DNA of 64,000 bases from a virus. Location: positions 1 to 64,000 of IMG/VR virus record IMGVR_UViG_3300045049_000070; one strand, given 5' to 3'. Both the position numbers and the translations under genes were made by a program. This document shows positions 14,420 through 33,116 of this stretch, one piece after another (the stretch's first letter is position 1; each line of letters begins with the position of its first letter). The notes beneath the pieces are model-generated. The model saw only the letters and a list, made by a program, of their open reading frames with translations, had not been told where the DNA came from and did not search any database.

Positions 14420-15691
14420 GTGCCTTTTCAACGCCGCTCGAACAATAAAATCCTTCCGCCAAATAGTCGCACAGCGGATGTGGCTCGGAAGACGCTGGAT
14501 GCTCTGGTTCCAGTCCAACAGCGAAAATATGCGAACGCATTCAAAGCAAATGGATATGAAACGTTGGTCTACAGTAGATTGAAACACGGAACTCCGTGTT
14601 CATGTCAATCTTCTAGACGAGCACAGGCCAGCATTCTTGACGAGCAAACAGGAAAATTGAAGAAAGGCCAGATGGAGAAAATATTGACCGGAGGACTATC
14701 TTTCCGTGTCAATCCATACGGCGTAAAAGAACCGATGCGTGACGATCTGCGTGCCCCTCGTGGTGGTCAATCTCAACCCCGAGACGAGCAGATTTATGAC
14801 GTGCTAGACAACAGTAAACCAGTTGCTGATTGGGAATTAGAGGACGACGTACTCGATAATCCTAATGCGACAGTCACTAGGGCAGCGAATGGTGACGAAG
14901 ATGATGCACAGGCTGATATTGTTGATCAAACAGCAGATGATGCTAGCGAGCTGGTGGACATTGAAGCGTATGCTAATGACAGCAAATGCGCAGTTTGTTT
15001 CGGGACCGGATATGTCGGTGGATTTACGTTGCTGAACGGATTGCGCTTAGTGATATGCACACAATGGCCTGCCATCTCCAATCTGGTGGGAACTATTGAA
15101 CCAAACCGTGTTCCGCATTCATTCTTTACGACAGATGTGTCGTTTACCGTCACGTTACCAAAAGGAGTGATTGGTGTTGATGCATTCAGATTGTGGAACA
15201 ACGATTTGCAGATTCACCCACTGACCATCACAATTGACGGTCTTTCGTATTCGATGGACTTGTTAAGAGCGTTTTGTGACGGACGTCCGCATACGTTCAG
15301 ATTCCAGTTTGAACGCCTGACGTATTTCACGCACGTAGAGCTCCAATTCAATTTGTCGGCCATTCCTGCTCTATTCGATTTCCCACGCGGGACGTTTGGA
15401 GCAAACATGCAGAACGTGGAAAATTTGGAGGACATGCAGTTGTATGCGAGTCCAGAGATTCCAAACATCGAACGTGAAGACATGCTGGTCGAATGTACGT
15501 TGGGGAAGGCATTGGTCGTCAGTTCAGTAACTGATTGGAAGACCAACAAACGTGATATTCTGGGCTGGGACGTGAACGTGCGTGCGCTCCAACCATCAGA
15601 ACTATTGAACTTGCTCCCACGTCGTCACCCAACGCATCAGAAATCCACTTACATGATAAGAGACAATATTGATGGTGGACGGAGAACGTAA
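14420..15691 (+). CDS. putative virion neck/head-completion protein with Zn-binding motif
   Basis: CSC ... CAVCFGTGYVGG; first gene after the late motif; AGGAG RBS. Confidence 0.55.
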   Translation: MPFQRRSNNKILPPNSRTADVARKTLDALVPVQQRKYANAFKANGYETLVYSRLKHGTPCSCQSSRRAQASILDEQTGKLKKGQMEKILTGGLSFRVNPYGVKEPMRDDLRAPRGGQSQPRDEQIYDVLDNSKPVADWELEDDVLDNPNATVTRAANGDEDDAQADIVDQTADDASELVDIEAYANDSKCAVCFGTGYVGGFTLLNGLRLVICTQWPAISNLVGTIEPNRVPHSFFTTDVSFTVTLPKGVIGVDAFRLWNNDLQIHPLTITIDGLSYSMDLLRAFCDGRPHTFRFQFERLTYFTHVELQFNLSAIPALFDFPRGTFGANMQNVENLEDMQLYASPEIPNIEREDMLVECTLGKALVVSSVTDWKTNKRDILGWDVNVRALQPSELLNLLPRRHPTHQKSTYMIRDNIDGGRRT

Positions 15692-16167
15692 TGCCAATCA
15701 CGAACAAGACTGTAGATTTGTGGTCACAAGTTCAACTGAAGGTCGATGGACGTCCTGTCAAAAGCGGTGATTTCTATGACATCAGTTATGATGTTTATCT
15801 GGATAACGAGTATGTCGGTTATTTGATCTCGGACTACGCATTGAATACTACTGTCCAGAATTTCTTAGACAAATTGGCTCCAGATCAATCACGATTAGCT
15901 GATGTTATGTCTGCTGTTCCTTCACGATATAGATTCAACTACTATTATCTGAACTACCTAGAAATCAAAAGAAAGTGGCAAGGTCAGGGAATAGGTGGAA
16001 TCGCGTTGCAGAAATGGTTTTCCAAGTTGAAGTCCCCAGCGATGGTTGGATTAACGCCCGCAAAGATTGCGAATGTCCCAGTAGATATCGTCCGTAAGTT
16101 CTATCTTAAGAATGGATTCAAGAAAGTAAATCCGCATTATTTTGTCACTTTCATTAAGAGCAAATAG
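15691..16167 (+). CDS. GNAT-family acetyltransferase with MPITNK leader
   Basis: YLEIKRKWQGQGIG (acetyl-CoA motif A) and KFYLKNGF (motif B). Confidence 0.8.
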   Translation: MPITNKTVDLWSQVQLKVDGRPVKSGDFYDISYDVYLDNEYVGYLISDYALNTTVQNFLDKLAPDQSRLADVMSAVPSRYRFNYYYLNYLEIKRKWQGQGIGGIALQKWFSKLKSPAMVGLTPAKIANVPVDIVRKFYLKNGFKKVNPHYFVTFIKSK

Positions 16168-16168
16168 T

Positions 16169-16405
16169 ATGGAAACCGTTTACGCTAACATTAGACGATT
16201 GGGTCGTATTCTAGCCGTGGCAAATAATCGTGGAATCGGTGAAGGGCTCGATAATCCATTTGCAACCGAAGCCGATATTCTCAACGATGATGTGGGAACC
16301 CAAGAAGAATATGAACATGCTGATCGTATGGGATTAAATGGACGTCCGATCGAAAAACCCACGGGAACAGGCATGGATCGAGAATCTATGGGGATGCAAT
16401 CGTGA
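16169..16405 (+). CDS. small hypothetical protein
   Basis: METVYANIRRLGRILAVA..., ATG 2 nt after the upstream stop. Confidence 0.55.
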   Translation: METVYANIRRLGRILAVANNRGIGEGLDNPFATEADILNDDVGTQEEYEHADRMGLNGRPIEKPTGTGMDRESMGMQS

Positions 16406-16420
16406 TCGGCATTTCGTGTG

Positions 16421-16535
16421 GGTAATTTGATTCCATACACAAGATAGTTGGGTGGCGGTGGTTGGACCAGAATTCATTCTGGAAACCGTTCCGTTCCGTC
16501 GTCATTCACTTAGGATTAGGAAATTATGGCGATCA
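16421..16535 (+). repeat. promoter/structured 5' leader, copy 1 (direct repeat)
   Basis: 30-nt exact match GATTCCATACACAAGATAGTTGGGTGGCGG plus CGTCATTCA and AGGAAATTATGGCGATCA shared with 17103-17201. Confidence 0.9.
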
Positions 16536-17107
16536 CTAATCGTCCAGAGACTGCTGAGACCTATAAAGACTATATTGAGATTCTGAAAAGGAAATATAAA
16601 CTGCGAGTATTAGGTGATGGAGCGTTCGGAACAGTGTTCCAGCACCCCACCTTGAAGAACGTAGCAGTGAAGGTCTACAGACAAGTGAAATGGATGTCAG
16701 CAACCAAATGGTTGGAATGGTGCAAGAAGCATCCGGAGAATCCTTACGTTCCTAAGATCTATAAGGTTGATTCTCTCCAAATAGAACAAGAAGGCTATCA
16801 ACGATACCTGCATAACGTGGTGTTTATGGAGAAACTATCTCGCGTTTCATCCACCTTTGTCGACGAGGTTCTTCAGAAAACAGGAGCATCAACCCATGTC
16901 TTGTATAAGACAGTTGATGAAGGAAGACTTGTGTACGAATTCTATTCGGATTCACGCAAGAATGTTCGTACTCTGAAAGACAAGAAATTGGCAGAAGTGC
17001 TATTGGCGATAGATCAGTTTGGCGATCAGTCTGATGGAACAGATTTGCGATATTCAAATTTCCTTCGTCGGGATCAACAATTGGTGTTCGTTGATCCTGT
17101 GAGGTAA
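16526..17107 (+). CDS. Ser/Thr protein kinase (T7 gp0.7-like) with MAITNR leader
   Basis: LGDGAFGTVFQHP..VAVKV, PYVPKIY, DLRYSNF, FVDPV. Confidence 0.8.
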   Translation: MAITNRPETAETYKDYIEILKRKYKLRVLGDGAFGTVFQHPTLKNVAVKVYRQVKWMSATKWLEWCKKHPENPYVPKIYKVDSLQIEQEGYQRYLHNVVFMEKLSRVSSTFVDEVLQKTGASTHVLYKTVDEGRLVYEFYSDSRKNVRTLKDKKLAEVLLAIDQFGDQSDGTDLRYSNFLRRDQQLVFVDPVR

Positions 17108-17201
17108 TTGGATTCCATACACAAGATAGTTGGGTGGCGGCTTCGATTTGATTTATCGAAAACCGAACCGCCGTCATTCATAGAGGAAATTATGGCGATC
17201 A
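17103..17201 (+). repeat. promoter/structured 5' leader, copy 2 (direct repeat)
   Basis: Matches copy 1; the kinase TAA stop is the start of the TAATTGGATT motif. Confidence 0.9.
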
Positions 17202-18415
17202 AACGATTGATGGGCTGTACTGAGATTGCTGACGCAACGCAGTATCGTAGCCTTACCGACGTTGAAAGACATCTGCAACAGATTAAAGATCAACTAAACG
17301 ACGCTGACGCGCTTCTGCGTACATACCGACTTCAATTCGCACGAGCTGAGACCTCGGCCATCAAATTCACAGTCGGTCAGGATATTGATGGCCCCAAGAA
17401 GGGCGGAAAGATAATCACGAATCAGATTGACAAAGTGGTGATTCCCAAGATGGATGCTCTGCGCTCCAACTTTGAGGTCGTCAATCAACTGGCAGAAAAG
17501 GTCCAAGAACTAGAGACCATGTATGCGTCGGTCGAAATCAATTTTCGCGGCGTTCGTGGGCAGCCAGATGTGCTGAAGTCGATCAAGACTATGAAAGCCG
17601 GAGCCGAAAAGAAGCTGCAGGATGCTCTCGACTTTCTAAACGATATCGGCACCAAATACGCCCCAACGGCCTTCAAGGAAATGACCAAGAAGGTTGCGGC
17701 GCGTCTGAACGAAGATCTTGACTTTGAGAAAGCCAAGTCTGCTGTATACGCTACTGAGATGGCGACAGGAGAATTGTCTTTCACTCTTTATATTGAACTA
17801 AAAAACCTCTCAGACGAAAACGGCGAAACATGGCCCAAATTCTACATCGTTCTGACGTGCGTTTTGGTTCCAATAGCTACCGACAAAACGAAACTGAGTG
17901 TCGAAACCTACGTCACTGTAATGCACGATTTCCAGCCTCCAGGACGTTTTGATGCGGGAAAACGAGTGACGACTGATAAGGAAGCGCTGGCCGAAATCGG
18001 ACATCTACTTAGCCTAGAAAATATCGCGACAGCTATCGGCACTTTGCCTCATAATCTGGTAGGGATTGACAAGAAGTTCTTGAAAACTGGAGCCGAGCGT
18101 GTACGTGATGTAGAGGTAGATGAATCTAGCTTCACGTTCTGGTTCCTGAAAGCGGTAAAAGAAGCAGAAGCACGTTCGTTGATGAATACTCTGTATCCGC
18201 AAGTTAAAGCAATGCTGTCACACATTAAGCGCGCTCAGGTAAAGATGCGACTGCTGGAAGCCAGCGACGGAGGATGGGGCGCGAAATACAGTCTGGTCAA
18301 TCTGGCTCGTGACGACCAGATTTCTGTGCAAGATCTTGATTGGCTGAAGAAGCAATTCAAGATGAGTGACGAAAAGCTACGTGAAGTAGTGAAGATCGTC
18401 AACAAAGGAAATTAA
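17192..18415 (+). CDS. putative virion protein with coiled-coil N-terminal half
   Basis: Start reassigned to the ATG at 17192 (GAGGAAAT RBS); MAIKRL... Confidence 0.7.
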   Translation: MAIKRLMGCTEIADATQYRSLTDVERHLQQIKDQLNDADALLRTYRLQFARAETSAIKFTVGQDIDGPKKGGKIITNQIDKVVIPKMDALRSNFEVVNQLAEKVQELETMYASVEINFRGVRGQPDVLKSIKTMKAGAEKKLQDALDFLNDIGTKYAPTAFKEMTKKVAARLNEDLDFEKAKSAVYATEMATGELSFTLYIELKNLSDENGETWPKFYIVLTCVLVPIATDKTKLSVETYVTVMHDFQPPGRFDAGKRVTTDKEALAEIGHLLSLENIATAIGTLPHNLVGIDKKFLKTGAERVRDVEVDESSFTFWFLKAVKEAEARSLMNTLYPQVKAMLSHIKRAQVKMRLLEASDGGWGAKYSLVNLARDDQISVQDLDWLKKQFKMSDEKLREVVKIVNKGN

Positions 18416-18423
18416 GACATATC

Positions 18424-18858
18424 ATGAAGATCAGACTTCAAGCCGCTGTTCGTCTTAAGAAAGTTTTAGCCGCAGCACTAAAATCCTTCCCTACGTTAAG
18501 CAAATATCCGACAATCGTGAAAGCAGTCGAGGAAATTGGACTCGACAACAACAGCAGAAAAGACTCTTATTATGGACGCGCCGAGTGGTATCTTACCAAA
18601 GGGAAATATAAGCCTGCAGAATTAGAAGCAACATGCAAAGAACTTTCCGGACAGAATGTCAGTAAGCTCAAGAATCCAAAGGCTATTGAGATGTATGGAA
18701 AGAACGGAAACTTCTTAGAAGTTCTGGCTATAGGCGAAGATAGGGATCAAAGAGATGTTATGTCCCGTTCACCGAAATACAAACGTGTGTTTGACTTTCT
18801 AGCCGATGTATTCGACGGTGCAGAGTGTCCTATCCACTCGCTATTCAGAGGTGAATAA
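18424..18858 (+). CDS. hypothetical protein with type-B leader
   Basis: MKIRLQAAVRLKKVLA. Confidence 0.75.
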   Translation: MKIRLQAAVRLKKVLAAALKSFPTLSKYPTIVKAVEEIGLDNNSRKDSYYGRAEWYLTKGKYKPAELEATCKELSGQNVSKLKNPKAIEMYGKNGNFLEVLAIGEDRDQRDVMSRSPKYKRVFDFLADVFDGAECPIHSLFRGE

Positions 18859-19134
18859 ATGAGGATTCAAGCTGTCGCACGGCTTAAAGAAGCCGCTGGT
18901 GTTCTAGACGTTAAACAGAAACAGAAGATACAGAGTGGTCTAGCACAGATATCTGAAGGAATGGCGATCATCAGAGTTGGCCTTAATACGTTGAAACCAA
19001 TTGTTGATGTTCTCAAGAAGAATGATGGAAGTTCTTACGTCGATCATGCAAGTGTCACTAACTCACTCAAAGATTTTGAGTTTGTTTTCAAAGCACTTAA
19101 AGACGCGATTAAAGACGACGACAAAGGCATCTAA
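18859..19134 (+). CDS. hypothetical protein with type-B leader
   Basis: MRIQAVARLKEAA; GAGGTG RBS. Confidence 0.75.
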   Translation: MRIQAVARLKEAAGVLDVKQKQKIQSGLAQISEGMAIIRVGLNTLKPIVDVLKKNDGSSYVDHASVTNSLKDFEFVFKALKDAIKDDDKGI

Positions 19135-19919
19135 TGAAACTGCAAGCACTTGCGCGCCTGTTGTCGCTAGCAGGTGCTTATACCGAAGACAGACTGACAC
19201 GCGAACAAGCAAAGAAACTAGCGCTTCAGTTACGTCCGCTAATCAAACGTCATTGTCAGGGTTTCCAGCTAGCGGGCTCATATCGTCGCGGCAAGACTGA
19301 TATTGGTGACTTAGATTTTGTGGTAGTCAATTGCGATATGGCTGCCTTGCTCTCTGACTTGGTTGAACATGCTGCGGCAACAGAAGCTCCTCGTGCAGGA
19401 TCCGGAATGTTGACCGTCACTGTGCCGTTCGGAAAGAAGAGTATTCAAGTCGAGTTTGTAAACGTCAAGCCTCGCGCGATAGGTAGCGGATTGCTTCATA
19501 GTACGGGAGGTGCAGATTTCAACAAAGGTCTGCGCAGTTACGCCAAGAGTAAGGGAATGCTGCTCAATCAGCATGGTCTGTTCCGTGCTGATAACAAGAG
19601 ATTCTTAGCCGGACGTACTGAAGAAGATGTGTTCGACAAGCTAGGGTGGGCGTTCGTTCCACCTAAAGAACGTGGCTTCAGTTTTATGACCTTGAAGCCC
19701 AAATATCTTATCGATCCATACAAGAATAACCTGTTGTTGAAGAAACCTCAAGGTGAAGGTAAAGTATGGAAGGTCAAATCCAAATCCGATCCAAACAAGC
19801 TCTATTTCGTGACACTAAAACCGAATGGCAAATGGACATGCACATGTCCGCAGTTTGTGTTCAGAAAAGTAGACTGCAAACACATAGATCTAGTTAAAGA
19901 GAGAACAGGTACCAAATGA
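19134..19919 (+). CDS. minimal family X DNA polymerase with C-terminal SWIM zinc finger and type-B leader
   Basis: AGSYRRGKTDIGDLDFV, HSTGG..FN..LR..AK.KG..LNQHGL, CTCPQF...CKHI; starts MKLQALARL. Confidence 0.9.
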   Translation: MKLQALARLLSLAGAYTEDRLTREQAKKLALQLRPLIKRHCQGFQLAGSYRRGKTDIGDLDFVVVNCDMAALLSDLVEHAAATEAPRAGSGMLTVTVPFGKKSIQVEFVNVKPRAIGSGLLHSTGGADFNKGLRSYAKSKGMLLNQHGLFRADNKRFLAGRTEEDVFDKLGWAFVPPKERGFSFMTLKPKYLIDPYKNNLLLKKPQGEGKVWKVKSKSDPNKLYFVTLKPNGKWTCTCPQFVFRKVDCKHIDLVKERTGTK

Positions 19920-20515
19920 ATCCCGTTAATCTAGCAAAGCTATCCTACACGTTCCTAGACTCGAACGGTGCTGCGTATGTCGGAAAAGAAGTGACTGTCT
20001 ACGAAGACAACTCTAGTATTCCTGTTCGTACATTCACGTCAGACGGTCGTTTCTTGGGTTCAATTGGATATACAGACCCAAATGGATTGTTTCAGACCTA
20101 CGTCCTGCAGGGCAAGAGCTATCGTTTAGTGATCCGTGATGCGGCTCTGAATGGGTTTGAACTCGACGAAGTGACGGGCATTGTTCCTTCGAATGCCAAT
20201 CCATCGAATGCAGCTCCGCTGACTGGTCCGCTGGCAATCACTGCATCACGAACGTTGACCGCTCAAGATAACGGACGTACTTTGGTGTCGAACGTCACGT
20301 CGGCGATCGTACTAACGATTCCTAAAGGACTCGCTTCTGGATTTGGATGTGCAGTCCATCAACAGAATACAGGAAAAGTTACATTTGCTGCCGCATCTGG
20401 TGTAACTATGACAAATGTTGGCGATCAATATTCGACGTCAGGCCAGAAAGCTACGATTGGATTAGTAAACATTGCTCAGGACGCTTACAACGTTACTGGT
20501 TCTACTGGAGCGTAA
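19916..20515 (+). CDS. putative tail-fibre/tailspike-associated structural protein
   Basis: Thr/Ser/Gly-rich beta protein (TLT..DNG..L; LTIP.GL..GF...V.Q..TG.VTF). Confidence 0.6.
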   Translation: MNPVNLAKLSYTFLDSNGAAYVGKEVTVYEDNSSIPVRTFTSDGRFLGSIGYTDPNGLFQTYVLQGKSYRLVIRDAALNGFELDEVTGIVPSNANPSNAAPLTGPLAITASRTLTAQDNGRTLVSNVTSAIVLTIPKGLASGFGCAVHQQNTGKVTFAAASGVTMTNVGDQYSTSGQKATIGLVNIAQDAYNVTGSTGA

Positions 20516-20520
20516 TCCAG

Positions 20521-22317
20521 ATGATGTTATCAAATGCTTTTCTAGCAGCTCTTGCAGCGGCCGGAAATCAGAATTTCACCTATTATGTAGATTCGGTAAA
20601 CGGGAACGATGCGAACAACGGTACATCTAAAGCATCTGCCTTCCAATCGCTGAGCAGCGTTCCGTTGCTAACCACCGGTCAATCAGTTGGACTGGCATGT
20701 GGATCGTACTGGCGTGGATATCTTCTAGACGTCAATAGTTCTGGTAACATCATCTTTGGATCGTACGGAACAGGTGCCCCTCCGGTAATGGATGGAGCAG
20801 TCGTCGTTACTGGGTGGACACAGAACGGAACATATTCTGATATCTACCAAGTTTCGTTCACACGTGACAATACGAATCCGACGACCACCGAACTACTTGG
20901 TCTGTGGATAGATGGTATACGCCCACGGTTTGCCTCGTCATTGGCTGATTTGGAAGCTAACGGTGGATGGTATGCAGATTCACGTATCTCCCTGACAACA
21001 AACGTGTACGTGAAAACGGTGCCTAACTCGCACACGATTGAGATCAGCAAATACGATTGGGCGATCGGATGCTACAACGCAGCGACTCCATGCTACGTAA
21101 ATGGTCCAATCGAAATGAAGCGTTATCTGGCGCATTACAACGCGCTCCAGATGGGCCCAGGACAGGCTCAACAATTCATTGTTAGAGATGGAACTATCCA
21201 CCATACGGTTACTCAAGCGTCATTGACACAAGATTTCATCTTGACTGAGCTGGATATACCGTCTGATCCAAATCTGATGGTCGCCTATCGTGATAATCCT
21301 GTTGGTTTTACACCAGTGATAAAACGTGGATTTGCCATCTTTGATCAAGCTACGTTAGGCGGCCAGAATTTCACAGTTCATGCAATTTCTGAGCACAGCG
21401 GATCAACAGATATCCAGAGTCTGGATGCAGAACAGTGCGGCTTTGTTGGAATAAATGGATTGGCCCATCTGTCTGCATCAAGTGGGCATCTAGAAGGAAT
21501 CTATTGTCACAACGTTGTCAGTGACGGAATATTCTTGGGTCCTGGGTCAACGGTGACTAGACTACTGATGTGGGACGATCAAGTCTCTAACTATAACGGC
21601 GGTGTCGCTGCAATGACACAAATCCACGCCGTTGTAAACGCATCTGCTTCTATCACTGACTGCGCTGTGTGGGGAAAGAAAGGTGCTCAGATGGTAATGG
21701 ACACCGTAGGAACAGTTCCGTTACCAATGTCGCACACTGTGCTATCTTCTGACAATGGTCAAGCGATCAACGTTACAAGTGGATCAATTGCCGTCAACTT
21801 CTGTGTCATTGACACAAACGATACCAACATACAGATTTGGGATGGATCTGATCCAGGATCGTACACTGGAGATTATAACGTATGGGCGTGGTGGCGCAAT
21901 CCGTCTGGCTTCCGACCCGGTGCCGTAAAAGGACAATGGAAAGGCTCTCTGATATTCCACCTAAATGATTGGCAAGCAGCGTCTGGTCAGGATGCTCATA
22001 GTGTAGGCCTTGATTCTGCCGATCAGGTGAGTGGCAATGCCAATGCATTCTGGTTAGGAATGGCTCTAGGAACTGGTGGACCTGAAGTTGGTGACTTCCG
22101 AATCAATCCAAATGCCAGAGTAATAGGTGGTGACGGAACGGCGTACATTGGAACGTTCACTGATGGAACTCCAATCACACAAGCGGGTCCTCAAACTCAC
22201 TGGGATTGGAACGCCAGAGCAATCGCATCTGGTCCTCCAACACATATACCACAGCTGCCAATAACTCTGTCTCAGATGCGACAGTATATTCAAACCCCAA
22301 AATTATGGACCTTCTGA
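20521..22317 (+). CDS. right-handed beta-helix (pectin-lyase-like) tailspike/depolymerase-like protein
   Basis: YYVDSVNGNDANNGTS..AF.SL and GSYGTGAPPV.DG motifs; start at ATG 20521. Confidence 0.65.
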   Translation: MMLSNAFLAALAAAGNQNFTYYVDSVNGNDANNGTSKASAFQSLSSVPLLTTGQSVGLACGSYWRGYLLDVNSSGNIIFGSYGTGAPPVMDGAVVVTGWTQNGTYSDIYQVSFTRDNTNPTTTELLGLWIDGIRPRFASSLADLEANGGWYADSRISLTTNVYVKTVPNSHTIEISKYDWAIGCYNAATPCYVNGPIEMKRYLAHYNALQMGPGQAQQFIVRDGTIHHTVTQASLTQDFILTELDIPSDPNLMVAYRDNPVGFTPVIKRGFAIFDQATLGGQNFTVHAISEHSGSTDIQSLDAEQCGFVGINGLAHLSASSGHLEGIYCHNVVSDGIFLGPGSTVTRLLMWDDQVSNYNGGVAAMTQIHAVVNASASITDCAVWGKKGAQMVMDTVGTVPLPMSHTVLSSDNGQAINVTSGSIAVNFCVIDTNDTNIQIWDGSDPGSYTGDYNVWAWWRNPSGFRPGAVKGQWKGSLIFHLNDWQAASGQDAHSVGLDSADQVSGNANAFWLGMALGTGGPEVGDFRINPNARVIGGDGTAYIGTFTDGTPITQAGPQTHWDWNARAIASGPPTHIPQLPITLSQMRQYIQTPKLWTF

Positions 22318-22775
22318 TGAAGATCAATGCGCCCAATAGACTGAAGGAAATTGCAGTCGAAATCAAACCTGAGAATCGTGGCAAGTTGCACAAGCGGCTT
22401 GGTATTCCAGAAGGAGAGACAATTCCAATGTCTCGTCTACATTCTGAACTCAAGAAAGCCAAGGACAGCGGCGATACTGAGCTCGAAAAGATGGTGAACT
22501 TCGCCATAAATTTTCACCACAAGGCCTCTGTGCAAAAGGCGGCAAAGAAACGCCTTCGTGATTACTTAGTGTCGTTCATTCCAGAACATTGGCCTGGAAC
22601 GACTGCGGTCCTAGAAGACGATTGTGTGATCGTGAAAGGACCAAAAGCACAGTTGGATAAGATCTATAAAGAATACCATGAAGATGGCCATCCAGGCGAA
22701 CTCGCTTGCTATCGCTATCCGAATTATGTGTCGATAACATCGACAGGCCGCAAAATGGGCGGAATGCCATGGTGA
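22317..22775 (+). CDS. hypothetical protein with type-B leader
   Basis: MKINAPNRLKEIA; GKLHKRLGIPEGETIP motif. Confidence 0.7.
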   Translation: MKINAPNRLKEIAVEIKPENRGKLHKRLGIPEGETIPMSRLHSELKKAKDSGDTELEKMVNFAINFHHKASVQKAAKKRLRDYLVSFIPEHWPGTTAVLEDDCVIVKGPKAQLDKIYKEYHEDGHPGELACYRYPNYVSITSTGRKMGGMPW

Positions 22776-23432: not shown

Positions 23433-23912
23433 ATGGCTATCACCAAAATCCATGCTGCTGAACGTTTGAAACAAACGGCTCTTACCGACACAAAAGGAGC
23501 AGCTGCGTTTGTACAGAAGGTCTTTGACAAATATCAGCTTGGTCTTAAAGTCAAAGCCGACAGAAATCCAGATAATGAGACTGAACCGGCATTAGCTGTA
23601 TCCGGCCGATACAAAGGGCAGGAAATTGAGTTCAACATCATTCTCATGGCGGACGGTAAGCGGCCGGATGTAGTTTTTGATGTCTTCGCATGGCCAGAAA
23701 TGTCCAATGAATCACCAGATGATTATGAGGCAATGGACGTTCTAATGCACAACGGCATGAAAAAGAAAAGCGAACGTCGTGCGTTGGTAAAAGGTCTAAA
23801 TCAAGCAGCTGGGACGCTCAGAGATTCTGCGAATAGACTTGTAGACTACGCCGATTGGCTTGAACGAGTATCTAAAGCTATGGCGGACATTGGAAGTAAG
23901 TACGGGAAATAA
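23433..23912 (+). CDS. hypothetical protein with hybrid A/B leader
   Basis: MAITKIHAAERLKQTA. Confidence 0.75.
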   Translation: MAITKIHAAERLKQTALTDTKGAAAFVQKVFDKYQLGLKVKADRNPDNETEPALAVSGRYKGQEIEFNIILMADGKRPDVVFDVFAWPEMSNESPDDYEAMDVLMHNGMKKKSERRALVKGLNQAAGTLRDSANRLVDYADWLERVSKAMADIGSKYGK

Positions 23913-24555: not shown

Positions 24556-25011
24556 ATGCCTAGCAACAGCAAACGTATTAAAGAGATTCTTGATCGTCTT
24601 GGAAAGATCAAAGAAATCCTAAGACGTAATGTCGATCCTAAGAAGAAAGCACCAGCGATTAAAGAACGTGAAGAATTGAAAAAAGAATTACAGAAGCTTG
24701 GATACACTGGCAAACTATATTCTAGTCTCGGTGCCGTAGCTCGTTTGCAAGAGATCGCTGCTACGAAGCAGGAGTGGGAAACCGTCTATAACGCTACGTT
24801 CAAGGTAATGCTCAAGCACGGACAAAGATATCTTGCTCGTGCCAAATGGTATTACGAGAACGACTACAGCGAAGTGATCATCGCATTCGAGACCGACATG
24901 GATGATGTTCCTGAGAGCTTGCTAAACGAGCTGAAGTCGTGCAATACGAAGAACGTTAGAGTCGATCCCTGCCGAAGCATTCATGGTAGCGGATTCACAC
25001 GATATAGATAA
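24556..25011 (+). CDS. hypothetical protein with internal type-B motif
   Basis: Basic N-terminal domain followed by GAVARLQEIAA. Confidence 0.7.
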   Translation: MPSNSKRIKEILDRLGKIKEILRRNVDPKKKAPAIKEREELKKELQKLGYTGKLYSSLGAVARLQEIAATKQEWETVYNATFKVMLKHGQRYLARAKWYYENDYSEVIIAFETDMDDVPESLLNELKSCNTKNVRVDPCRSIHGSGFTRYR

Positions 25012-25017
25012 GACATT

Positions 25018-26490: not shown

Positions 26491-26495
26491 ATATC

Positions 26496-26768
26496 ATGGC
26501 GATCATAAATCGTGTCGAAGCCGTTCGAAAGCGCATTTACGAGTTCGTCCCCGGAAGACCAAAATTCTTTTACGCAGACGAAGTCGATAGCATCATTAAC
26601 AATCTAAAAACAAAAGGCAAGGCAGAGCTGCTACATAATGCGTTAAGCGACTTTTTCGATTTTAGTGTCGACAGGAGTAATCTAAAGAATCCAAAGAAAG
26701 CTTCTGATCAACTCTGCAAAGACGTTGGGAAAACTGTCTGGTACTCAGAAATAGACGATGATCACTAA
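26496..26768 (+). CDS. hypothetical protein with type-A leader
   Basis: MAIINRVEA; start reassigned to ATG 26496. Confidence 0.7.
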   Translation: MAIINRVEAVRKRIYEFVPGRPKFFYADEVDSIINNLKTKGKAELLHNALSDFFDFSVDRSNLKNPKKASDQLCKDVGKTVWYSEIDDDH

Positions 26769-27519
26769 CCGTATACAAGCGGCTGCTTTATACAGATTGG
26801 TCGACAGCATGCCTTCAGTAACTGTCTACCACGGAACCACTGAGAAAGAAGCCGAAAGAGGACTGAAAAATCCTGATAACCTAAATACAAACTGGGCACA
26901 AGGTCTCCTGCCTCCAAATAGTCATCATCTAACAACTGACTTGAATCTAGCGAAAGGATATGCATCATCTGGTGTTCCTAGAAAATATTTCAAGGAATCA
27001 GAGAAGCGAATGAATGATGCTATTGATGACGTTCAACGAACAGCTAGAGATTACGAAAAGAAGCTAGGATTGGATCCAGATTCTAAGATGTGGTCCGTGT
27101 GGAAAGAACAATCTCCACACACCTTTAAGAAGAAATATCCGAATGTATTCAAGCTTGGAGAAGTTGAATACGAGAAGCGTGTCAAGCAGCTAATGAAATT
27201 CTCTAAAAGTCTTTATATAGCTTTCGATGACAAAGTGGAGCAAAAGAAACTTGAAGACGTTCGCGGTCAAGGTGGATATGTTCTATCGTTTACCCTTACT
27301 CCAAAGAAGGTGCTCGCATTTTCAAAACCCTTTGACTCTCTTGACAAGTATGAACTATTTAGTGCCCTTCAGCGAATGAAGGGCAAGTTCCAGTGTATCT
27401 ATTTTCCCAGTTCATATTTGCGTCCAGAAAATATGAAAGGTGGTCGTGTCAAGAGAAGTGATTACTATATTGTAGTAGGAACAAAGCTTCTCTCAAATCA
27501 GAAGAGAATAGACTTATGA
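26758..27519 (+). CDS. ADP-ribosyltransferase-fold-like protein with leader
   Basis: MITNRIQAAALYRL; VYHGTT ... LTTDLNLAKGYA ... GGYVLSF. Confidence 0.5.
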   Translation: MITNRIQAAALYRLVDSMPSVTVYHGTTEKEAERGLKNPDNLNTNWAQGLLPPNSHHLTTDLNLAKGYASSGVPRKYFKESEKRMNDAIDDVQRTARDYEKKLGLDPDSKMWSVWKEQSPHTFKKKYPNVFKLGEVEYEKRVKQLMKFSKSLYIAFDDKVEQKKLEDVRGQGGYVLSFTLTPKKVLAFSKPFDSLDKYELFSALQRMKGKFQCIYFPSSYLRPENMKGGRVKRSDYYIVVGTKLLSNQKRIDL

Positions 27520-28166
27520 CGATCACCAATCGAATCGTTGCTGTCCCGAAAGAAGCTAATCCAAACAGCAAAGAGTGGAAAGCCGGATACTCTGCCGGTC
27601 GCAATGGGAAGAGTAGCAAATCACCTCACGTAAAAGGCACTCAAAAGGAAATCGACTGGACGGATGGATGGATAACTGGTGATCATGAACGTAATAGTCC
27701 ACCTCCAAAATCAACTAAGGATGTTTTGGGATATTCGATACAAGATCGCTTAGAACGTTTACGACAACGTCGTGGGGATCCTCCAGATGTCTGGTACACG
27801 CATGAAACAGCGGTTCCGTCCAAAAGCGTTTACTACGTTCTCAGACGATTATTCAAGACACTATTTCCACACGGAGGAGCTGGCGACGTTCCGCCGTATG
27901 GAACAAACATATGTCATGGGCGAGTGGCAGAAGCAATCAAACGTAGGAACTACAATCCAGAAGACAAAATCTGGCTGTATGGCGCGTCTGGTGGTGATGT
28001 CATGCATTCGGTCCTGACAGACGAACATAATCGAGTGATCCTCGATCCTTGGGCTGGAAGCGGAAACGCTTTTGGTGGACGAGATGGTTATGGCAAACCC
28101 GGTGACATGCTTGACTGTTTATGGGTCGAAACAGTGGCCGGACTTCAAGACGAATTTGGTATTTAA
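27516..28166 (+). CDS. leader-tagged two-domain protein: RMF-like motif plus Cys-His-Asp (papain/transglutaminase-like) domain
   Basis: MTITNRIVA; GYSAGRNGK..SP...W.DGW; ICHG ... MHSVL ... ILDPW. Confidence 0.5.
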   Translation: MTITNRIVAVPKEANPNSKEWKAGYSAGRNGKSSKSPHVKGTQKEIDWTDGWITGDHERNSPPPKSTKDVLGYSIQDRLERLRQRRGDPPDVWYTHETAVPSKSVYYVLRRLFKTLFPHGGAGDVPPYGTNICHGRVAEAIKRRNYNPEDKIWLYGASGGDVMHSVLTDEHNRVILDPWAGSGNAFGGRDGYGKPGDMLDCLWVETVAGLQDEFGI

Positions 28167-28181
28167 CACATAGGAGCTATC

Positions 28182-28316
28182 ATGTTTTCAACAGTTTTGA
28201 TTTTTGTTGCTGGTGTCGTGTTTGCAGCCTTCTTTCCAAAAGCTACTCAATGGGCACACGATAAGGCCGTTGCCACATTCACTGCGTTAAAGAGTCTGTT
28301 CGCTAAGAAGCAATAA
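28182..28316 (+). CDS. 44-aa single-TM membrane protein (not in the ORF track)
   Basis: TAGGAG RBS; MFSTVLIFVAGVVFAAFFPKATQWAHDKAVATFTALKSLFAKKQ*. Confidence 0.7.
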   Translation: MFSTVLIFVAGVVFAAFFPKATQWAHDKAVATFTALKSLFAKKQ

Positions 28317-28317
28317 T

Positions 28318-28629
28318 ATGGCAATCTCAGAACGTATAACGTCAGCTATTGGAATAACTCCTGAACAGAAGCAGATACAAACCAAGTTCCTGACGTTGCT
28401 GAAGCGTAGTAATAGAGGGATCAAGGCAGAACAAGCAGGTAGTGTTTGGGAGGTCTACTACACTTCGAAAGACCACAGCATCACCTTTGGTGACGACTTG
28501 CTGAAGTTCTCGGTAAAGAACGGTATAACCATATCAATCATAAAAGACTCTACTGTAATCAAACTCAGTGCGATCTTCTCTATGGATAGAAACCAAATGC
28601 AAGAGCTTATAGATAACATCAGTGACTAA
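28318..28629 (+). CDS. hypothetical protein with type-A leader
   Basis: MAISERITSA. Confidence 0.7.
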   Translation: MAISERITSAIGITPEQKQIQTKFLTLLKRSNRGIKAEQAGSVWEVYYTSKDHSITFGDDLLKFSVKNGITISIIKDSTVIKLSAIFSMDRNQMQELIDNISD

Positions 28630-28950
28630 ATGCAGTTCCGACGCGGCAAGAATGGTGTGACGCGTATAGTGCGTGATACATACCGAAAGAAGTACGCACC
28701 GACAGTCGGCGGTAAGAAAGTAACTGAAGATTGGTGGACACTCAAACAGCGTGTTCTTAAACGAGATGGATACAGATGTCGTCAATGCAACGTAAAACAC
28801 GGTTCAGATGATCCACAAAAACCTGGATCAAAGATCTGGCTAGACGTACATCATATACGTGAGTTGTCGCGTGGTGGAACTACGACGATGGCTAATCTAA
28901 TTTCTTTATGTCGACGTTGTCACCAAACACGTCACTCCCATCACTTCTAA
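28630..28950 (+). CDS. HNH endonuclease
   Basis: RDGYRCRQC ... DVHHI...GG...NLISLCRRCH. Confidence 0.9.
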   Translation: MQFRRGKNGVTRIVRDTYRKKYAPTVGGKKVTEDWWTLKQRVLKRDGYRCRQCNVKHGSDDPQKPGSKIWLDVHHIRELSRGGTTTMANLISLCRRCHQTRHSHHF

Positions 28951-28960
28951 AGGACGAAAT

Positions 28961-29419
28961 ATGGGCATCGTAGTTCTAACAGGGGCCGCAGCTCGCGGTC
29001 ATATGGATCACAGACCAGATTTGCCGACCACTAATGAGCCACGAATGCTCATTCATTGGGATGGTGTTGCAAATCGAAAAGTCAATTCAAACTTGGCTGA
29101 TGGCGTATGCTGGCTCAATCCGCAAGCACTTATCCGTTATGGACTGGTTAATATGGGTCTGCAATTCCACTCGTTGAACAGTGGGGCAGGAACGATCAAG
29201 ATTGAAGGATCGATGAGTCCTGGTGAATTTGCTGACCGTCTAAAAGACAGTTCAGATGCGTGGTCGAATGCGGTAATATCTAAGGAAGCGAATAATTTTG
29301 CGACAATTTCTGCCGCGCTAGCGAGTGGAGCGTCCGTAAATTCGACAATTATTTATACGTTGCTCCGAATTACGTTCCCAGTCGGAACACCATGCAGTTT
29401 GTCCATCACTTCGATGTAA
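28961..29419 (+). CDS. hypothetical protein, probably structural
   Basis: AAGGA RBS; beta-rich sequence. Confidence 0.7.
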   Translation: MGIVVLTGAAARGHMDHRPDLPTTNEPRMLIHWDGVANRKVNSNLADGVCWLNPQALIRYGLVNMGLQFHSLNSGAGTIKIEGSMSPGEFADRLKDSSDAWSNAVISKEANNFATISAALASGASVNSTIIYTLLRITFPVGTPCSLSITSM

Positions 29420-29488
29420 GACGACCGTAATTTGATTACGTACCCTAGAGGTCGCTGCCCACCAATTCAATTTGCCCGGAGATCGAAT

Positions 29489-30022
29489 ATGTCCCAACCT
29501 TCGGAGCAGTTCTTGGACGTCACTGTCCAGGCACAGTCTCCGCCAGACGTTGAACAAAACGATGATGTAACTCTTGAAGATATCATCACAGCTTTTCTAG
29601 ACGTCAATCCAACTCCCTCAGACGATCAAATACATACGTTGGCTGCGCTTCTGAACGTTCCCTTTGAGGATTTTGAAGCCGTTATCTATAAGATGTTTTC
29701 GCGCTACGTGAAAGATCCAGAATCTTACGCCGTAGACGATGCAATTAACGGATTAACCCAACGAGATGGACCAGAAGACGATCCGGTAGAAAACCTACTC
29801 GTTTGCTTCTTTTCCTACCATCCGGATCCAACAGATGTTGAGATCCACCAGCTCTCGGGGTTGATCGATATGACGCCCGAAGAACTGGAAGAAATTCTGT
29901 ATGCGATGCTATCAGAGATCAACGACGATCAGGAAGCAGAAATAGCATCAGATGAAATAGCTACTGAACCGTGTGAGCAAGATGAGTTCCCGTACCAGAA
30001 CGATCAGCTCCATACACCGTGA
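29489..30022 (+). CDS. acidic protein with duplicated helical domain
   Basis: FLDVNPTPSDDQIHTLA..L vs FFSYHPDPTDVEIHQLS..I; preceded by TAATTTGATT at 29428. Confidence 0.75.
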   Translation: MSQPSEQFLDVTVQAQSPPDVEQNDDVTLEDIITAFLDVNPTPSDDQIHTLAALLNVPFEDFEAVIYKMFSRYVKDPESYAVDDAINGLTQRDGPEDDPVENLLVCFFSYHPDPTDVEIHQLSGLIDMTPEELEEILYAMLSEINDDQEAEIASDEIATEPCEQDEFPYQNDQLHTP

Positions 30023-30039
30023 AATGCAAAGGATTTATC

Positions 30040-30870
30040 ATGTCTCAAGATACATATCGCCTGTTTGATCTGGACAAAGTTGCTGCTCAACTGTCCCGCT
30101 TTACTGTAAACGTCCACGACTACAAAATGCTGAGCCCAACAGTTGCTCGTGTGATTTTGTCGTACACAGGAACGGTCCCAACACAAGAACAAATGCGTCA
30201 AGAAATTGCTGCTCTGTTCGACAACAACGCATCGGCTGTAGCCGGATCCTTCCGCCAACTGACAACGGCTGGTGACGTGAAGAGCGCAGTTGGCTTTGTC
30301 AAGATGAGTCGCGAAGTGCGTCCTTTCGGCGACGAAGAAGTGAAGGCTGCGGCTGATACTCACAAGGTAATGGCATCTAACCTGCTGATGAATAAAGCAG
30401 ATGGTTCCATGTGGGAAATCAAGAGCGGTGCGATGGGCAAATATCTAGCCAAGCAAACTGGGGACGATCTGCGTGAGCTTATCCATCTAGCTCACGCTTC
30501 GGTCGGCGGCCTACCGCGATTCAGTTCGATTGCCAGCCTTGCCAGCATGACGCAACCGAAAGAATTCGCAGCATACGTTGACCTGAACGCTGAAGAAGTG
30601 CTGCATGGTTTTGTAATCGAGTCATCCGCCGACAAGATCAAGATCTTGGCCAAAGAAACTGACGAAGTAGTTGAAGTAGCTGCCGATCAGTTGGTCCAAG
30701 TGCAAGATTTGGAAGGTGAGGAAAAGGCTGCTATTACCGCCAGCCCGGAAATGCAAAACTTCAGCCAAGACGCTGCTGGCATGGTTGCCTATTACCGTCT
30801 GGCATATCGCTACTCTCCTGATTACATTCAGAAGATTATCGACATAATCGGTCAACACTCTTTCGCGTAA
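30040..30870 (+). CDS. putative virion structural protein
   Basis: AAGGA RBS; late-motif operon; followed by a terminator. Confidence 0.65.
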   Translation: MSQDTYRLFDLDKVAAQLSRFTVNVHDYKMLSPTVARVILSYTGTVPTQEQMRQEIAALFDNNASAVAGSFRQLTTAGDVKSAVGFVKMSREVRPFGDEEVKAAADTHKVMASNLLMNKADGSMWEIKSGAMGKYLAKQTGDDLRELIHLAHASVGGLPRFSSIASLASMTQPKEFAAYVDLNAEEVLHGFVIESSADKIKILAKETDEVVEVAADQLVQVQDLEGEEKAAITASPEMQNFSQDAAGMVAYYRLAYRYSPDYIQKIIDIIGQHSFA

Positions 30871-30884
30871 GGCTAACGCGGTTC

Positions 30885-30927
30885 AAACGGGAGCCTGTCC
30901 ACCACGGATAGAGCTCCCGTTTTCGTT
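30885..30927 (+). terminator. rho-independent terminator
   Basis: AAACGGGAGC...GCTCCCGTTTTCGTT. Confidence 0.75.
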
Positions 30928-30940
30928 CCAAGGACACATC

Positions 30941-31297
30941 ATGGCAATCACAAACAAAGTCACTGCAAAGCCTTCGCAGGAAACTGCTCTCAGTTGGGCA
31001 GATATGGCGAAAACGGTTAACACTGTCGTTAATGAACTCCGCGCGGGCGGAGTCAAGTTGAAGAAAGAGAATGAACCTGTACGCGGGCCTTCTTACTACA
31101 GACAGTTCTATATCTGCTTGTCAGGTGAGGAATCGATTCCAAAAATCTTGAAAGCACGTGGATTCAAGACTGATAAACTTGGGACGATGGGAAAGCGAGT
31201 AGGCTCGTATGGAGTGGCTGTAGACTACGATCCCAACGATAACATGATTGAAATCGTCATTACAGATTTCGACGGTCCACAAGAAGAACCTTTCTGA
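30941..31297 (+). CDS. hypothetical protein with type-A leader
   Basis: MAITNKVTA. Confidence 0.75.
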   Translation: MAITNKVTAKPSQETALSWADMAKTVNTVVNELRAGGVKLKKENEPVRGPSYYRQFYICLSGEESIPKILKARGFKTDKLGTMGKRVGSYGVAVDYDPNDNMIEIVITDFDGPQEEPF

Positions 31298-31299
31298 TC

Positions 31300-31521
31300 A
31301 TGGCAATCAAGAACCGTATTCAAGCTACTCCAGGCGAGCTCACTGGATGGTTCTTGCCTGTAGACAGTGTTAGCGACATCCAACGTGAACGCATTACAGA
31401 ATTCGTAAGGCGAGCAAAGGGTGCTCACTTCATCAACATCTTGATGCGTATCGACGGTCAAGACGAGAATATTGAGGCCGACTGGCTCAGTCGTCTCGAT
31501 CCAAGTACTTCCATCGTATAA
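31300..31521 (+). CDS. type-A leader protein, paralog of 31811..32035
   Basis: MAIKNRIQA..GWFL..KGAHFI..RI.G.DE..DW. Confidence 0.8.
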   Translation: MAIKNRIQATPGELTGWFLPVDSVSDIQRERITEFVRRAKGAHFINILMRIDGQDENIEADWLSRLDPSTSIV

Positions 31522-31547
31522 ACCACCGTGCAGTAGAGTGGACGATC

Positions 31548-31811
31548 ATGCAACGCCTCCAACCAAACGGCAGACTGTGGAACTTCGTTATCGCAGTAGA
31601 CCAGTTGATAGCCACATGGTTTGGAGCGTGGCCTGACGAGACATTGAGCAGTTATGCTTGGCGTCTTGAGCGTGCTGGTGACCCCGAAGGTCACTACTGG
31701 CGTGTACAGATCGACGACATCTTTGAGCATTTGTTTGGTGTACGGGATCATTGTGAAAACGCACATGCAAGTCACATGATACGTAATTCCATCCCTCCTG
31801 AGGAGCGCTAA
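31548..31811 (+). CDS. small phage protein (IAxDQ..G.PDETLSS motif)
   Basis: NFVIAVDQL..FGAWPDETLSSYAWR..HC. Confidence 0.7.
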   Translation: MQRLQPNGRLWNFVIAVDQLIATWFGAWPDETLSSYAWRLERAGDPEGHYWRVQIDDIFEHLFGVRDHCENAHASHMIRNSIPPEER

Positions 31812-32035
31812 TGGCGATCAAGAACAGAATTCAAGCCAGTACCAGGATTAAGGGCTGGTTTCTAAAAGCAACAGATGATCAAGAGTACGCGCAGCGAATT
31901 AACTCGATCATCAACTGGTTGAAGGGTGCACACTTCATTGATCTTGCGGTTCGAATCAATGGGAAAGATGAACGAGAACAAGGCGATTGGGTCAAGTACC
32001 TAGAGCCAGTGTTTGGAGAAGAAGATGTCACTTAA
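31811..32035 (+). CDS. type-A leader protein, paralog of 31300..31521
   Basis: MAIKNRIQA..GWFL..KGAHFI. Confidence 0.8.
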   Translation: MAIKNRIQASTRIKGWFLKATDDQEYAQRINSIINWLKGAHFIDLAVRINGKDEREQGDWVKYLEPVFGEEDVT

Positions 32036-32486
32036 GAAAGTAGAAGCAGCACAAATTAGCGCGGCCGGGATTATCTTTGTGCATGATGGACAGTTCTTGT
32101 TAATCATGCGTGCGCGTGATGTTGTCTCTCCATCTGTGTGGTGCGGAGCTGGTGGAAAGATCGAACCGGGCGAAACACCGGAACAGGCCGCCATACGCGA
32201 GTCTGAGGAAGAAATTGGGTTTCCATCTGATTTGCCAATGGAACTGATTCCGCTATATGTGTTCAATAGCGACAGTCTGGTATTTCATAACTATATCGGA
32301 TGGCTAAAGGGTGACCGATTTGACCCTAAGCTGAATTGGGAGTCAGATGGATGGGCATGGTTCACGATGGAGAATCTGCCACAGAATGGATTACACTTCG
32401 GCTTTCAGGCTATACTGTCTGATCCAATGGCAGCGTCCTTGTTGAACAGAACTATTGAAGGTTCCGTACTAAAGAGAGCAGAATGA
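32025..32486 (+). CDS. Nudix hydrolase
   Basis: GGKIEPGETPEQAAIRESEEEIG Nudix box; start MSLKKVEA. Confidence 0.9.
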   Translation: MSLKKVEAAQISAAGIIFVHDGQFLLIMRARDVVSPSVWCGAGGKIEPGETPEQAAIRESEEEIGFPSDLPMELIPLYVFNSDSLVFHNYIGWLKGDRFDPKLNWESDGWAWFTMENLPQNGLHFGFQAILSDPMAASLLNRTIEGSVLKRAE

Positions 32487-32716
32487 TGCCCATCTCAAAT
32501 AGAGTCGAAGCTGTAGGCGAATCTCCAGAAGAAACAAAGGAGTGGGAAGCCATCGCCAAGTTTGTGGCGCGCGGCAAAGGAAGTGCCGTCAAGGACAAAG
32601 GCAAGAAAGTAATGTCTACGTATGACAGACTTCCAAAGTCAAATCCCACTATTCACGAGATCGAAGTTAATGGAACTCGATACGCCATTGTGAAAATCAT
32701 CAGTCTGAGTAACTAA
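32483..32716 (+). CDS. hypothetical protein with type-A leader
   Basis: MMPISNRVEA. Confidence 0.7.
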   Translation: MMPISNRVEAVGESPEETKEWEAIAKFVARGKGSAVKDKGKKVMSTYDRLPKSNPTIHEIEVNGTRYAIVKIISLSN

Positions 32717-32729
32717 GCACTAAAGCATC

Positions 32730-33116
32730 ATGACTATAACAAATCGCATAACGGCATCTCCAGCAACGCTGGAAGAACGTACCAACATTCCAAACGATCC
32801 GATTAGTGTTGCTCGTGCTCATTGGTTTATCGCTCATTTCCAGAACGGTCTTGAACGACAACTTCATTTGGCTTTCGATCCGTCCTTGACCGGACACGAC
32901 AGAATCGTGTTCAAGAGGAAAGGAAATCAGCTGAACGCTGAATCGATTGTGGCATGGCTAGAACATGCGGGGCTGAAGTTTCGTCCTGCCCGTATGAGCG
33001 TCGGAATCCCATATGCCATGATAAGCGATCGCCAATCTATCGACGGCCAATACATCTACTTCTCTGTCACATACTATGCAACACAAGGCACAGTGACTGT
33101 CTCGTGCCAATGGTGA
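32730..33116 (+). CDS. hypothetical protein with type-A leader
   Basis: MTITNRITA. Confidence 0.75.
   Translation: MTITNRITASPATLEERTNIPNDPISVARAHWFIAHFQNGLERQLHLAFDPSLTGHDRIVFKRKGNQLNAESIVAWLEHAGLKFRPARMSVGIPYAMISDRQSIDGQYIYFSVTYYATQGTVTVSCQW

Follow-up and report, generated by a model that had tools for sequence, protein, structure and literature searches.

Within the 64,000-nucleotide stretch of viral DNA analyzed here (the window), which makes up the first 64 kb of one 72,411-bp contig (IMG/VR record IMGVR_UViG_3300045049_000070; CheckV completeness, 29%), about 20 genes packed into 17.4 kb encode proteins that start with variants of one short peptide, referred to below as the tag. The array is the largest encountered in this analysis. 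The tag is modular and interchangeable, and it occurs throughout the clade to which the contig belongs, that of the jumbo phages related to Ralstonia phage RSL1 (phiRSL1). Judged from sequence, we consider it moderately probable that RSL1-like jumbo phages use the peptide as a head-loading tag, similar to that of phage T4, which is cut off after its alanine. The contig itself is a fragment of an uncultured relative of phiRSL1; its gene content, including NAD (nicotinamide adenine dinucleotide) salvage, a 1,589-residue SNF2 helicase, DNA polymerase, SSB, UvsX, SbcCD, and a clamp loader, matches that of an RSL1-like jumbo myovirus. No DNA nearly identical to the tagged block was found among 50,697 phage records.

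A first-pass annotation of the window had listed 17 such leaders and sorted them into two kinds, type A (MAITNRIxA) and type B. All 17 are present: 11 of type A (among which the hybrid at 26758 is already counted), five of type B, and a hybrid at 23433. The leader given at 32483 exists, but its coordinate does not hold, as 32483 is an MM- start of the gene that we place at 32486. Three tagged starts were added, at 16169 (METVYANIRRLG), at 17192 (MAIKRL, doubtful), and at the Nudix ATG at 32025 (MSLKKVEAA). Every tagged gene begins with ATG, and the tags comprise 7 to 14 residues and end in Ala or Arg-Leu. Translation of the 72,411-bp contig in all six frames yields 10 copies of the un-anchored type A core, I-x-[NEHK]-[RK]-[IV]-x(1,2)-A, nine at codon 2-3 of open reading frames (ORFs) of the block and one out of frame. 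Regular expressions describing the tags match 19 of the 31 genes of the block but only 2 of the 77 genes outside it (Fisher, 3e-11), which bears out the earlier statement that the early and replication genes of the contig carry no such leaders; 2,000 shuffles of the first 20 residues gave on average 2.46 and at most 9 matches, compared with 21 observed. These p values flatter the result because the expressions were written post hoc, with the data already seen. A leader model run across the proteome, as the annotation had proposed, gave the same picture: with a position-specific scoring matrix (PSSM) built from 133 tags of 34 other phage loci, the called tags were the top 13 of 108 N termini. 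The window's tags thus match the model of other RSL1-like genomes, type A more weakly, with median scores of 12.4 bits for type B, -2.7 bits for type A, and -12.0 bits for the other N termini (type A versus the rest, p 4e-4).

The bodies behind the tags are unrelated. After removal of the tags, a single pair of the 190 possible pairs of tagged proteins (31300/31811) was found to be related at E<=0.01. A short N-terminal peptide is common to otherwise unrelated proteins, and both chance and paralogy of the tagged proteins are rejected as its cause. The Pfam and PHROG domains of these proteins start downstream of the tag. In the AlphaFold model of the family X polymerase (PolX) encoded at 19134, which has an overall predicted local distance difference test (pLDDT) value of 91.8, the tag is predicted to form a separate helix (residues 2 to 11; mean pLDDT, 54), followed by a disordered linker at residues 12 to 14 (pLDDT below 50) and then by the confidently folded domain. 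As proposed by the annotation, conservation lies at the peptide level: in pairwise comparison of the 11 type A leaders, nucleotide identity is 0.673 at codon positions 1 and 2 and 0.360 at position 3, while stretches of 27 nt on either side give 0.291 (upstream) and 0.269 (downstream). The Arg codons of these leaders include CGT, CGA, CGC, and AGA. The tag is, in other words, selected as a peptide.

These identities bear on the view that the peptide is a by-product of gene entry, having little or no function and reflecting cassettes that recombine at, or duplicate, a common promoter, ribosome-binding site (RBS), and first-codon segment. One gene of the array fits it. Within 16421-17201, the kinase gene is a 682-bp cassette between 38-nt direct repeats that are 97% identical and contain a promoter-like motif, and the starts at 16526 and 17192 share 18 identical nucleotides (RBS plus ATGGCGATCA), including the first 10 coding nucleotides; by its sequence, this cassette looks like an insertion together with a duplicated promoter and start region. 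Gene conversion could, in addition, produce the likeness among the tags of one genome that is described below. However, barring the kinase/17192 pair, identity upstream of the leaders is at background and that at position 3 close to it, in contrast to positions 1 and 2; moreover, the tag persists in phages that share only 37-41% identity in their connector proteins, and orthologues with as little as 32.5% identity retain it. We regard an origin of this kind as improbable. As to a nucleotide-level repeat as the general cause, this was rejected on the position 3 and flank identities, the kinase cassette alone having flanking repeats.

Even less credible is an element acting at the level of RNA or translation, such as an optimized start region or a downstream-box-like enhancer that carries no protein signal. 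All tags do sit on an ATG, and 10 of the 11 type A leaders use ATC for the Ile at codon 3, compared with 53% genome-wide. Synonymous sites nevertheless vary freely, including CGN/AGA for Arg, the two forms of the tag differ in nucleotides yet replace one another on the same cargo, and structural genes of the block that are presumably highly expressed lack the tag.

The head-tail connector/adaptor gene in the middle of the array was used as bait to find relatives. Its product is 39% identical to ORF118 of phiRSL1, 37% to gp092 of BcepSauron, and 68% to its counterpart in a 248,884-bp IMG/VR contig (100% complete), hereafter G001, the close relative used for the comparison of orthologues; 35 IMG/VR loci around connector homologues served as the sample for a clade-wide count. 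In these loci, the tag M-K-[IL]-[ENQ]-A-A-x-R-L-x-A was found in 154 of 1,162 same-strand ORFs, compared with 16 of 1,093 ORFs on the opposite strand. The type B leader of the annotation is this clade-wide, canonical tag. Type A is a derivative of it, shorter and nearly confined to the present lineage: 9 of its 12 regular expression matches in the 35 loci fall in G001, and one PolX homologue on another contig begins with MAITHRILAG. In the cultured phage phiRSL1, the tag takes the form M-x-Y-x-I-x-A-A-V-x-R-L-x-A-T on ORF111, 112, 123, 124, 127, 133, and others; BcepSauron, likewise cultured, and a 221,431-bp record carry it as well.

The annotation had read types A and B as a two-address sorting code, a proposal that did not survive the comparison with relatives. 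Hybrids of the two forms occur at 23433, 26758, and 31811, and the PolX orthologue of G001 begins with MPILQRILAG where the protein encoded here has MKLQALARLLSLAG. Among 23 PolX homologues, the stretch ahead of the conserved AGAYTKDRLTR is canonical, of type A, absent, or replaced by a longer domain. Likewise, a kinase homologue (locus L028) bears the canonical tag MKIEAAQRLVA, and the Nudix counterparts begin with MSINKKVEAAA in G001 and with MKINSAFRLL in ORF109 of phiRSL1. Since the types are exchanged between orthologues and type A is a lineage-specific derivative, two addresses are not supported, and the code was dropped in favor of one degenerate tag, described most simply as one or two units of basic-hydrophobic-x-Ala. 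The shortened type A, its coexistence with the ancestral form, and the interchange of the two are new here.

Tags also carry the mark of the genome in which they reside. Across loci L021-L054, genome-specific flavors such as MKIEAA.., MKVKLNAA.., MEIQAA.., and M.FKIEA..RI were seen, and the kinase homologue and some Nudix homologues bear the flavor of their own genome. At seven unconstrained tag positions, identity was 0.393 within and 0.260 between genomes, a difference reached in none of 300 label shuffles. Such likeness within a genome is expected if one partner per genome reads the tags.

A candidate for what such a partner would read is provided by the major capsid protein. G001 encodes a capsid protein and a protease for head maturation (phrog_18299). 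Among 120 capsid homologues, 117 begin with a peptide of 9-19 residues that ends in hydrophobic-x-Ala, as the tags do, before a conserved [ST]-[DE]-[YF]-[RK]. Long capsid N termini resemble the tag, for example M-S-K-I-K-V-Q-A-A-R-T-P-T-V-A, and in one genome (G004) a capsid start M-R-K-V-K-I-S-A-S-K... stands alongside tags of the form M-K-V-K-L-N-A-A.... Two PSSMs derived from the capsid peptides rank the tagged proteins of the window above the rest (Mann-Whitney p 7e-4 and 6e-4). The similar Ala-ending peptide at the start of the capsid proteins would tie the tag to head assembly. The protease of the clade (in G001, L006 12582-13388, minus strand) has invariant His137, Ser195, Glu246, and Ser248 (alignment A2), and its family shows a nearly invariant, zinc-ribbon-like Cys-Cys-Cys-His insert. 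Neither the G001 nor the phiRSL1 enzyme belongs to a Pfam family or has a relative among sequences of solved structure; of 61 family members, one matched Pfam S78 (E 0.07) and one S78_2 (E 0.005), both faintly. The clade is large: 530 homologues of the capsid protein were counted at E<=1e-20, and 606 of the protease at E<=1e-3.

Specifically, we envisage the tag as an N-terminal helix of 9-14 residues, comprising one unit (type A, ...N-R-I-x-A) or two (canonical, K-I-x-A ... R-L-x-A), that would mimic the very start of the major capsid protein of this clade. From this likeness we infer loading by a shared partner: the component that recognizes the capsid N terminus, either scaffold or prohead protease, would bring a tagged protein into the assembling prohead, the prohead protease would then remove the tag after Ala, and the cargo would remain in the head together with the DNA. 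This cargo would comprise the kinase, the family X polymerase, the Nudix hydrolase, a possible ADP-ribosyltransferase (ART), and about 15 small proteins of unknown function. More tentatively, and with rather more doubt than belief on our side, each RSL1-like phage may in this way load 15-20 small proteins and enzymes that are rapidly exchanged, via a programmable code copied from the N terminus of the capsid protein, and deliver them with the DNA as a kit for host takeover or anti-defense in the first minutes of infection.

Several observations weigh against head loading. The contig carries no capsid, portal, scaffold, terminase, or prohead protease gene according to Pfam/PHROG annotation, and the link to the head therefore rests on the relatives, in whose complete genomes the tagged cluster lies at least 13 kb from the capsid gene. 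The resemblance to the capsid peptide is modest, with 5 of 19 tagged proteins scoring above 0 bits with the long-form capsid PSSM, and capsid N termini and tags did not detectably covary genome by genome (matched mean, 13.17 versus 12.50; 15.8% of 720 permutations were as high). The conserved Ala junction of the capsid protein is itself a putative cleavage site. Of the tags themselves, four are weak or doubtful (15691, 16169, 17192, and 23914), type A has a negative median score under the canonical model, and 20 of 32 homologous ORFs in relatives lack a tag-like start by regular expression. Finally, head targeting, cleavage, and delivery into the host are predictions made from gene sequences.

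Some of these points would suit a shared handle with a role outside the head, either a degron or processing signal that times late accessory enzymes (read by a host ClpXP-type or a phage protease) or a helix docking onto a neck- or connector-type partner. The tagged genes cluster by the connector gene and away from the capsid gene, the PolX model shows the tag as an amphipathic helix standing free at the N terminus, many of the cargo proteins are enzymes that would serve no obvious purpose in a virion, and the contig encodes an HslV-like peptidase; the tag also presumably resembles N-terminal recognition motifs of ClpX. On the other hand, the motif recurs elsewhere only at the N terminus of the capsid protein, none of the 77 genes outside the structural block carries it apart from the two matches given above, and a degron common to the most abundant structural protein would be odd. 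A non-head role is unlikely in our view, and head loading remains the reading that we prefer.

The position and turnover of the tagged genes were likewise compared. In complete relatives, the tagged genes are packed densely on both flanks of the connector gene, as a single cluster; in one of these genomes (G005), 18 of 30 regular expression matches fall within 130-150 kb, where the tagged cluster occupies 134.6-145.2 kb. The tag is restricted to a variable set of genes clustered around that of the connector, and the annotation's description of a modular N-terminal element on unrelated accessory proteins, encoded amid structural genes, is upheld. Across 30 distinct related loci, homologues were found for only 9 of 20 tagged genes, and 7 of 19 tagged genes, compared with 9 of 13 untagged neighbors, have one in G001; the faster turnover of the tagged genes matches accessory cargo. 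The late-type motifs to which the annotation had pointed correspond to a recurrent intergenic motif, TAATTTGAT, that we regard as promoter-like only. It occurs five times in the window (14378, 16423, 29428, 36691, and 62869), compared with 0.78 times expected from shuffling, always on the plus strand, between genes, and ahead of groups of structural or tagged genes. A further copy was spotted by eye near contig position 64.45 kb.

The features of the block are listed in Table 1. Among the functional labels given to the tagged proteins by the annotation, kinase and PolX are supported, GNAT is weak (below the Pfam cutoff), the C-H-D enzyme stands as a candidate label only, and the ART-like assignment is a lead only: matches of the 26758 protein in a public protein atlas include DUF3990, RES, PARP, and DarT at TM values of 0.41-0.45 and ART-PolyVal on 24% of one cluster.

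TABLE 1 Tagged genes, neighboring untagged genes, and a promoter-like repeat in the window
Position	Strand	Tag or feature	Supporting data
14420..15691	+	Conserved gene without a tag, bounding the variable locus on the left; corresponds to ORF115 of phiRSL1	phrog_21298; 61% identical to G001
15691..16167	+	MPITNKTVD, weak type A, no terminal Ala; GNAT-like body (weak)	PF13508 E 8.9e-4, below cutoff
16169..16405	+	METVYANIRRLG, weak canonical-type tag	Canonical PSSM 4.0 bits, rank 8/108
16421..16458	+	Promoter-like repeat GGTAATTTGATTCC...	Longer copies at 17103-17140 and 29427-29449
16526..17107	+	MAITNRPETA, type A; T7 gp0.7-like protein kinase	phrog_15752 E 8.8e-12, residues 14-192
17192..18415	+	MAIKRL start, doubtful tag; core gene conserved in the clade	Homologues in 16 related loci
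18424..18858	+	MKIRLQAAVRLK, canonical/type B	Canonical PSSM 16.8 bits; capsid-derived PSSM 13.0 bits, top of 108
18859..19134	+	MRIQAVARLKEA, canonical	Canonical PSSM 15.9 bits
19134..19919	+	MKLQALARLLSLAG, canonical; family X polymerase palm-thumb plus SWIM zinc finger	Pfam; Pol lambda/PolX fold E 6e-15
19916-20515, 20521-22317	+	Two untagged tail-fiber/virion-protein-like genes	PHROG virion structural protein matches
22317..22775	+	MKINAPNRLKEIA, canonical	Canonical PSSM 14.3 bits; G001 orthologue begins MTIRAIARLKELA
23433..23912	+	MAITKIHAAERLK, hybrid: type A start plus canonical core	Canonical PSSM 10.5 bits
23914..24546	+	MKAESRLKVLA, weak, shortened	Canonical PSSM 4.5 bits
25018..26490	+	Head-tail connector/adaptor gene, untagged; locus anchor	phrog_17327 E 4e-52; Pfam PF23148
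26496..26768	+	MAIINRVEA, type A	Repeat family D1
26758..27519	+	MITNRIQAAALYRL, hybrid; possible ADP-ribosyltransferase fold (lead only)	Atlas matches
27516..28166	+	MTITNRIVA, type A; RMF-like N-domain	Pfam RMF E 7.8e-4, below cutoff; atlas residues 15-69 RMF-like
28318..28629	+	MAISERITSA, type A variant	
30941..31297	+	MAITNKVTA, type A	G001 orthologue 32.5% identical overall, begins MAITHRIVA
31300..31521	+	MAIKNRIQA, type A	phrog_31185; paralogue of 31811
31811..32035	+	MAIKNRIQASTRIKG, type A then canonical core	Canonical PSSM 15.7 bits at offset 6
32025..32486	+	MSLKKVEAA, type A-like; Nudix hydrolase from internal ATG	Pfam NUDIX E 5e-18
32486..32716	+	MPISNRVEA, type A	G001 orthologue 85% identical, begins MPVKNRVEA
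32730..33116	+	MTITNRITA, type A	

Counterparts in relatives add detail to some of these genes. The G001 orthologue of the 15691 gene begins with MTINKRAQTF, and the likely counterpart of the 26758 gene in locus L051 begins with MEIQAAVRLQASQPLYHGTT; homologues of the 17192 gene have a tag-like start in only 2 of the 16 related loci. The public atlas entry for the 26758 protein begins at residue 18 and hence lacks the tag, which indicates that automatic gene calling can skip the tag and that it is under-counted in databases. The untagged 151-residue protein encoded at 24556-25011 contains an internal canonical core, L-G-A-V-A-R-L-Q-E (residues 58-66; 24727-24753), which follows a basic helical stretch and has no start codon nearby; this protein may have a longer propeptide or derive from a fused gene.

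Outside the tagged genes, the ORF115-like gene and the connector gene are 9.3 kb apart here, compared with 5.4 kb in G001 and 1.3 kb in phiRSL1. No G001 homologue was found for the two tail-fiber/virion-protein-like genes. The NAD salvage genes at 5093-6214 and 8313-9908 encode an NMN (nicotinamide mononucleotide) adenylyltransferase/Nudix fusion and a nicotinamide phosphoribosyltransferase (compare ORF104 and ORF106 of phiRSL1). Past the window, near the contig end and both on the minus strand, lie a gene for a T5 A1-like "DNA transfer protein" (contig 66593-68062, L001 4593-6062; phrog_1745 E 1e-142) and the gene for the HslV-like peptidase (contig 68401-68856, L001 6401-6856).

The accessible portions of the literature, to which the phiRSL1 virion protein list and bioRxiv supplements may add, yielded no account of an N-terminal tag shared by proteins of RSL1-like phages. 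The accessible text of the Matilda preprint, a jumbo-phage review (PMC13282480), PMC11297242, PMC8066314, and PMC7412058 (PaBG) is silent on it, and the phiRSL1 GenBank record holds no virion notes. If the head-loading reading is correct, the tag would join that of T4 as only the second short capsid-targeting code known, in an unrelated and very large clade, that of the RSL1-like jumbo phages, most of which are uncultured. Sequence would then suffice to mark hundreds of candidate virion-delivered proteins, a list in which to look for host-takeover and anti-defense functions, and the tag, being short, would offer a simple handle for packaging chosen foreign proteins into jumbo-phage heads. The window also shows such a code drifting, with the shortened type A coexisting with the ancestral form and replacing it on the same cargo.

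Among known systems, the Dar antirestriction proteins of phage P1 are accessory anti-defense proteins packed in a myovirus head and delivered with the DNA. Their loading is hierarchical and proceeds via partner proteins, and we know of no short tag common to them. With regard to cleavage, the herpesvirus capsid maturation protease (assemblin), a serine protease, cuts after hydrophobic-x-Ala, as at the pseudorabies virus R- and M-sites YLQA-T and VQA-S given in the accessible part of PMC4498786; the sequences IQA-T (31300), IQA-S (31811), and V-x-A-[ST] at the capsid junction compare with these sites. By analogy, the phage protease might have an assemblin-like specificity; assemblin is, however, an enzyme of eukaryotic viruses, and its substrates are the scaffold and the protease itself rather than cargo tags. 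The phiKZ-like phages (phiKZ, 201phi2-1, and SPN3US) are, like the RSL1-like phages, jumbo phages and have dozens of head proteins; according to the accessible text of PMC5694885, their N-terminal propeptides are removed by the prohead protease and are thought to direct proteins to the prohead, and two SPN3US paralogues share an identical 15-residue start. These propeptides belong to a different lineage, are mostly longer than 100 residues, and end in Ala/Ser/Gly-x-Glu, unlike one short tag on unrelated proteins; the tags described here have 7-14 residues and end in Ala or Arg-Leu.

The closest known analogue, and as a comparison the one that the annotation had rightly drawn, is the capsid-targeting sequence (CTS) of T4. 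A CTS of about 10 residues loads internal proteins (IPs) into the T4 head, suffices to bring foreign proteins into the prohead core, and is removed by gp21, as far as the available portions of PMC9958956 and PMC5694885 describe; in both systems, a peptide of about 10 residues thus stands at the N terminus of otherwise unrelated, nonessential proteins, in T4 IPI, IPII, IPIII, and Alt (PMC9958956, PMC5694885). The T4 capsid protein is also N-terminally processed, and T4 cargo includes the ADP-ribosyltransferase Alt, with which the possible ART at 26758 may be compared. The T4 CTS peptides end in Leu/Ile-x-Glu; the basic-hydrophobic-x-Ala units described here bear no sequence relation to them. 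The analogy does not extend to descent, as no tagged protein matched the T4 IP or Alt families in PHROG or Pfam, and the protease, for which no Pfam family and no relative among sequences of solved structure was found, belongs to a different, unclassified family (phrog_18299) rather than to that of gp21. Unlike T4, moreover, the RSL1-like phages would carry far more cargo species per genome, 17-20 in the present case, many of which are enzymes.

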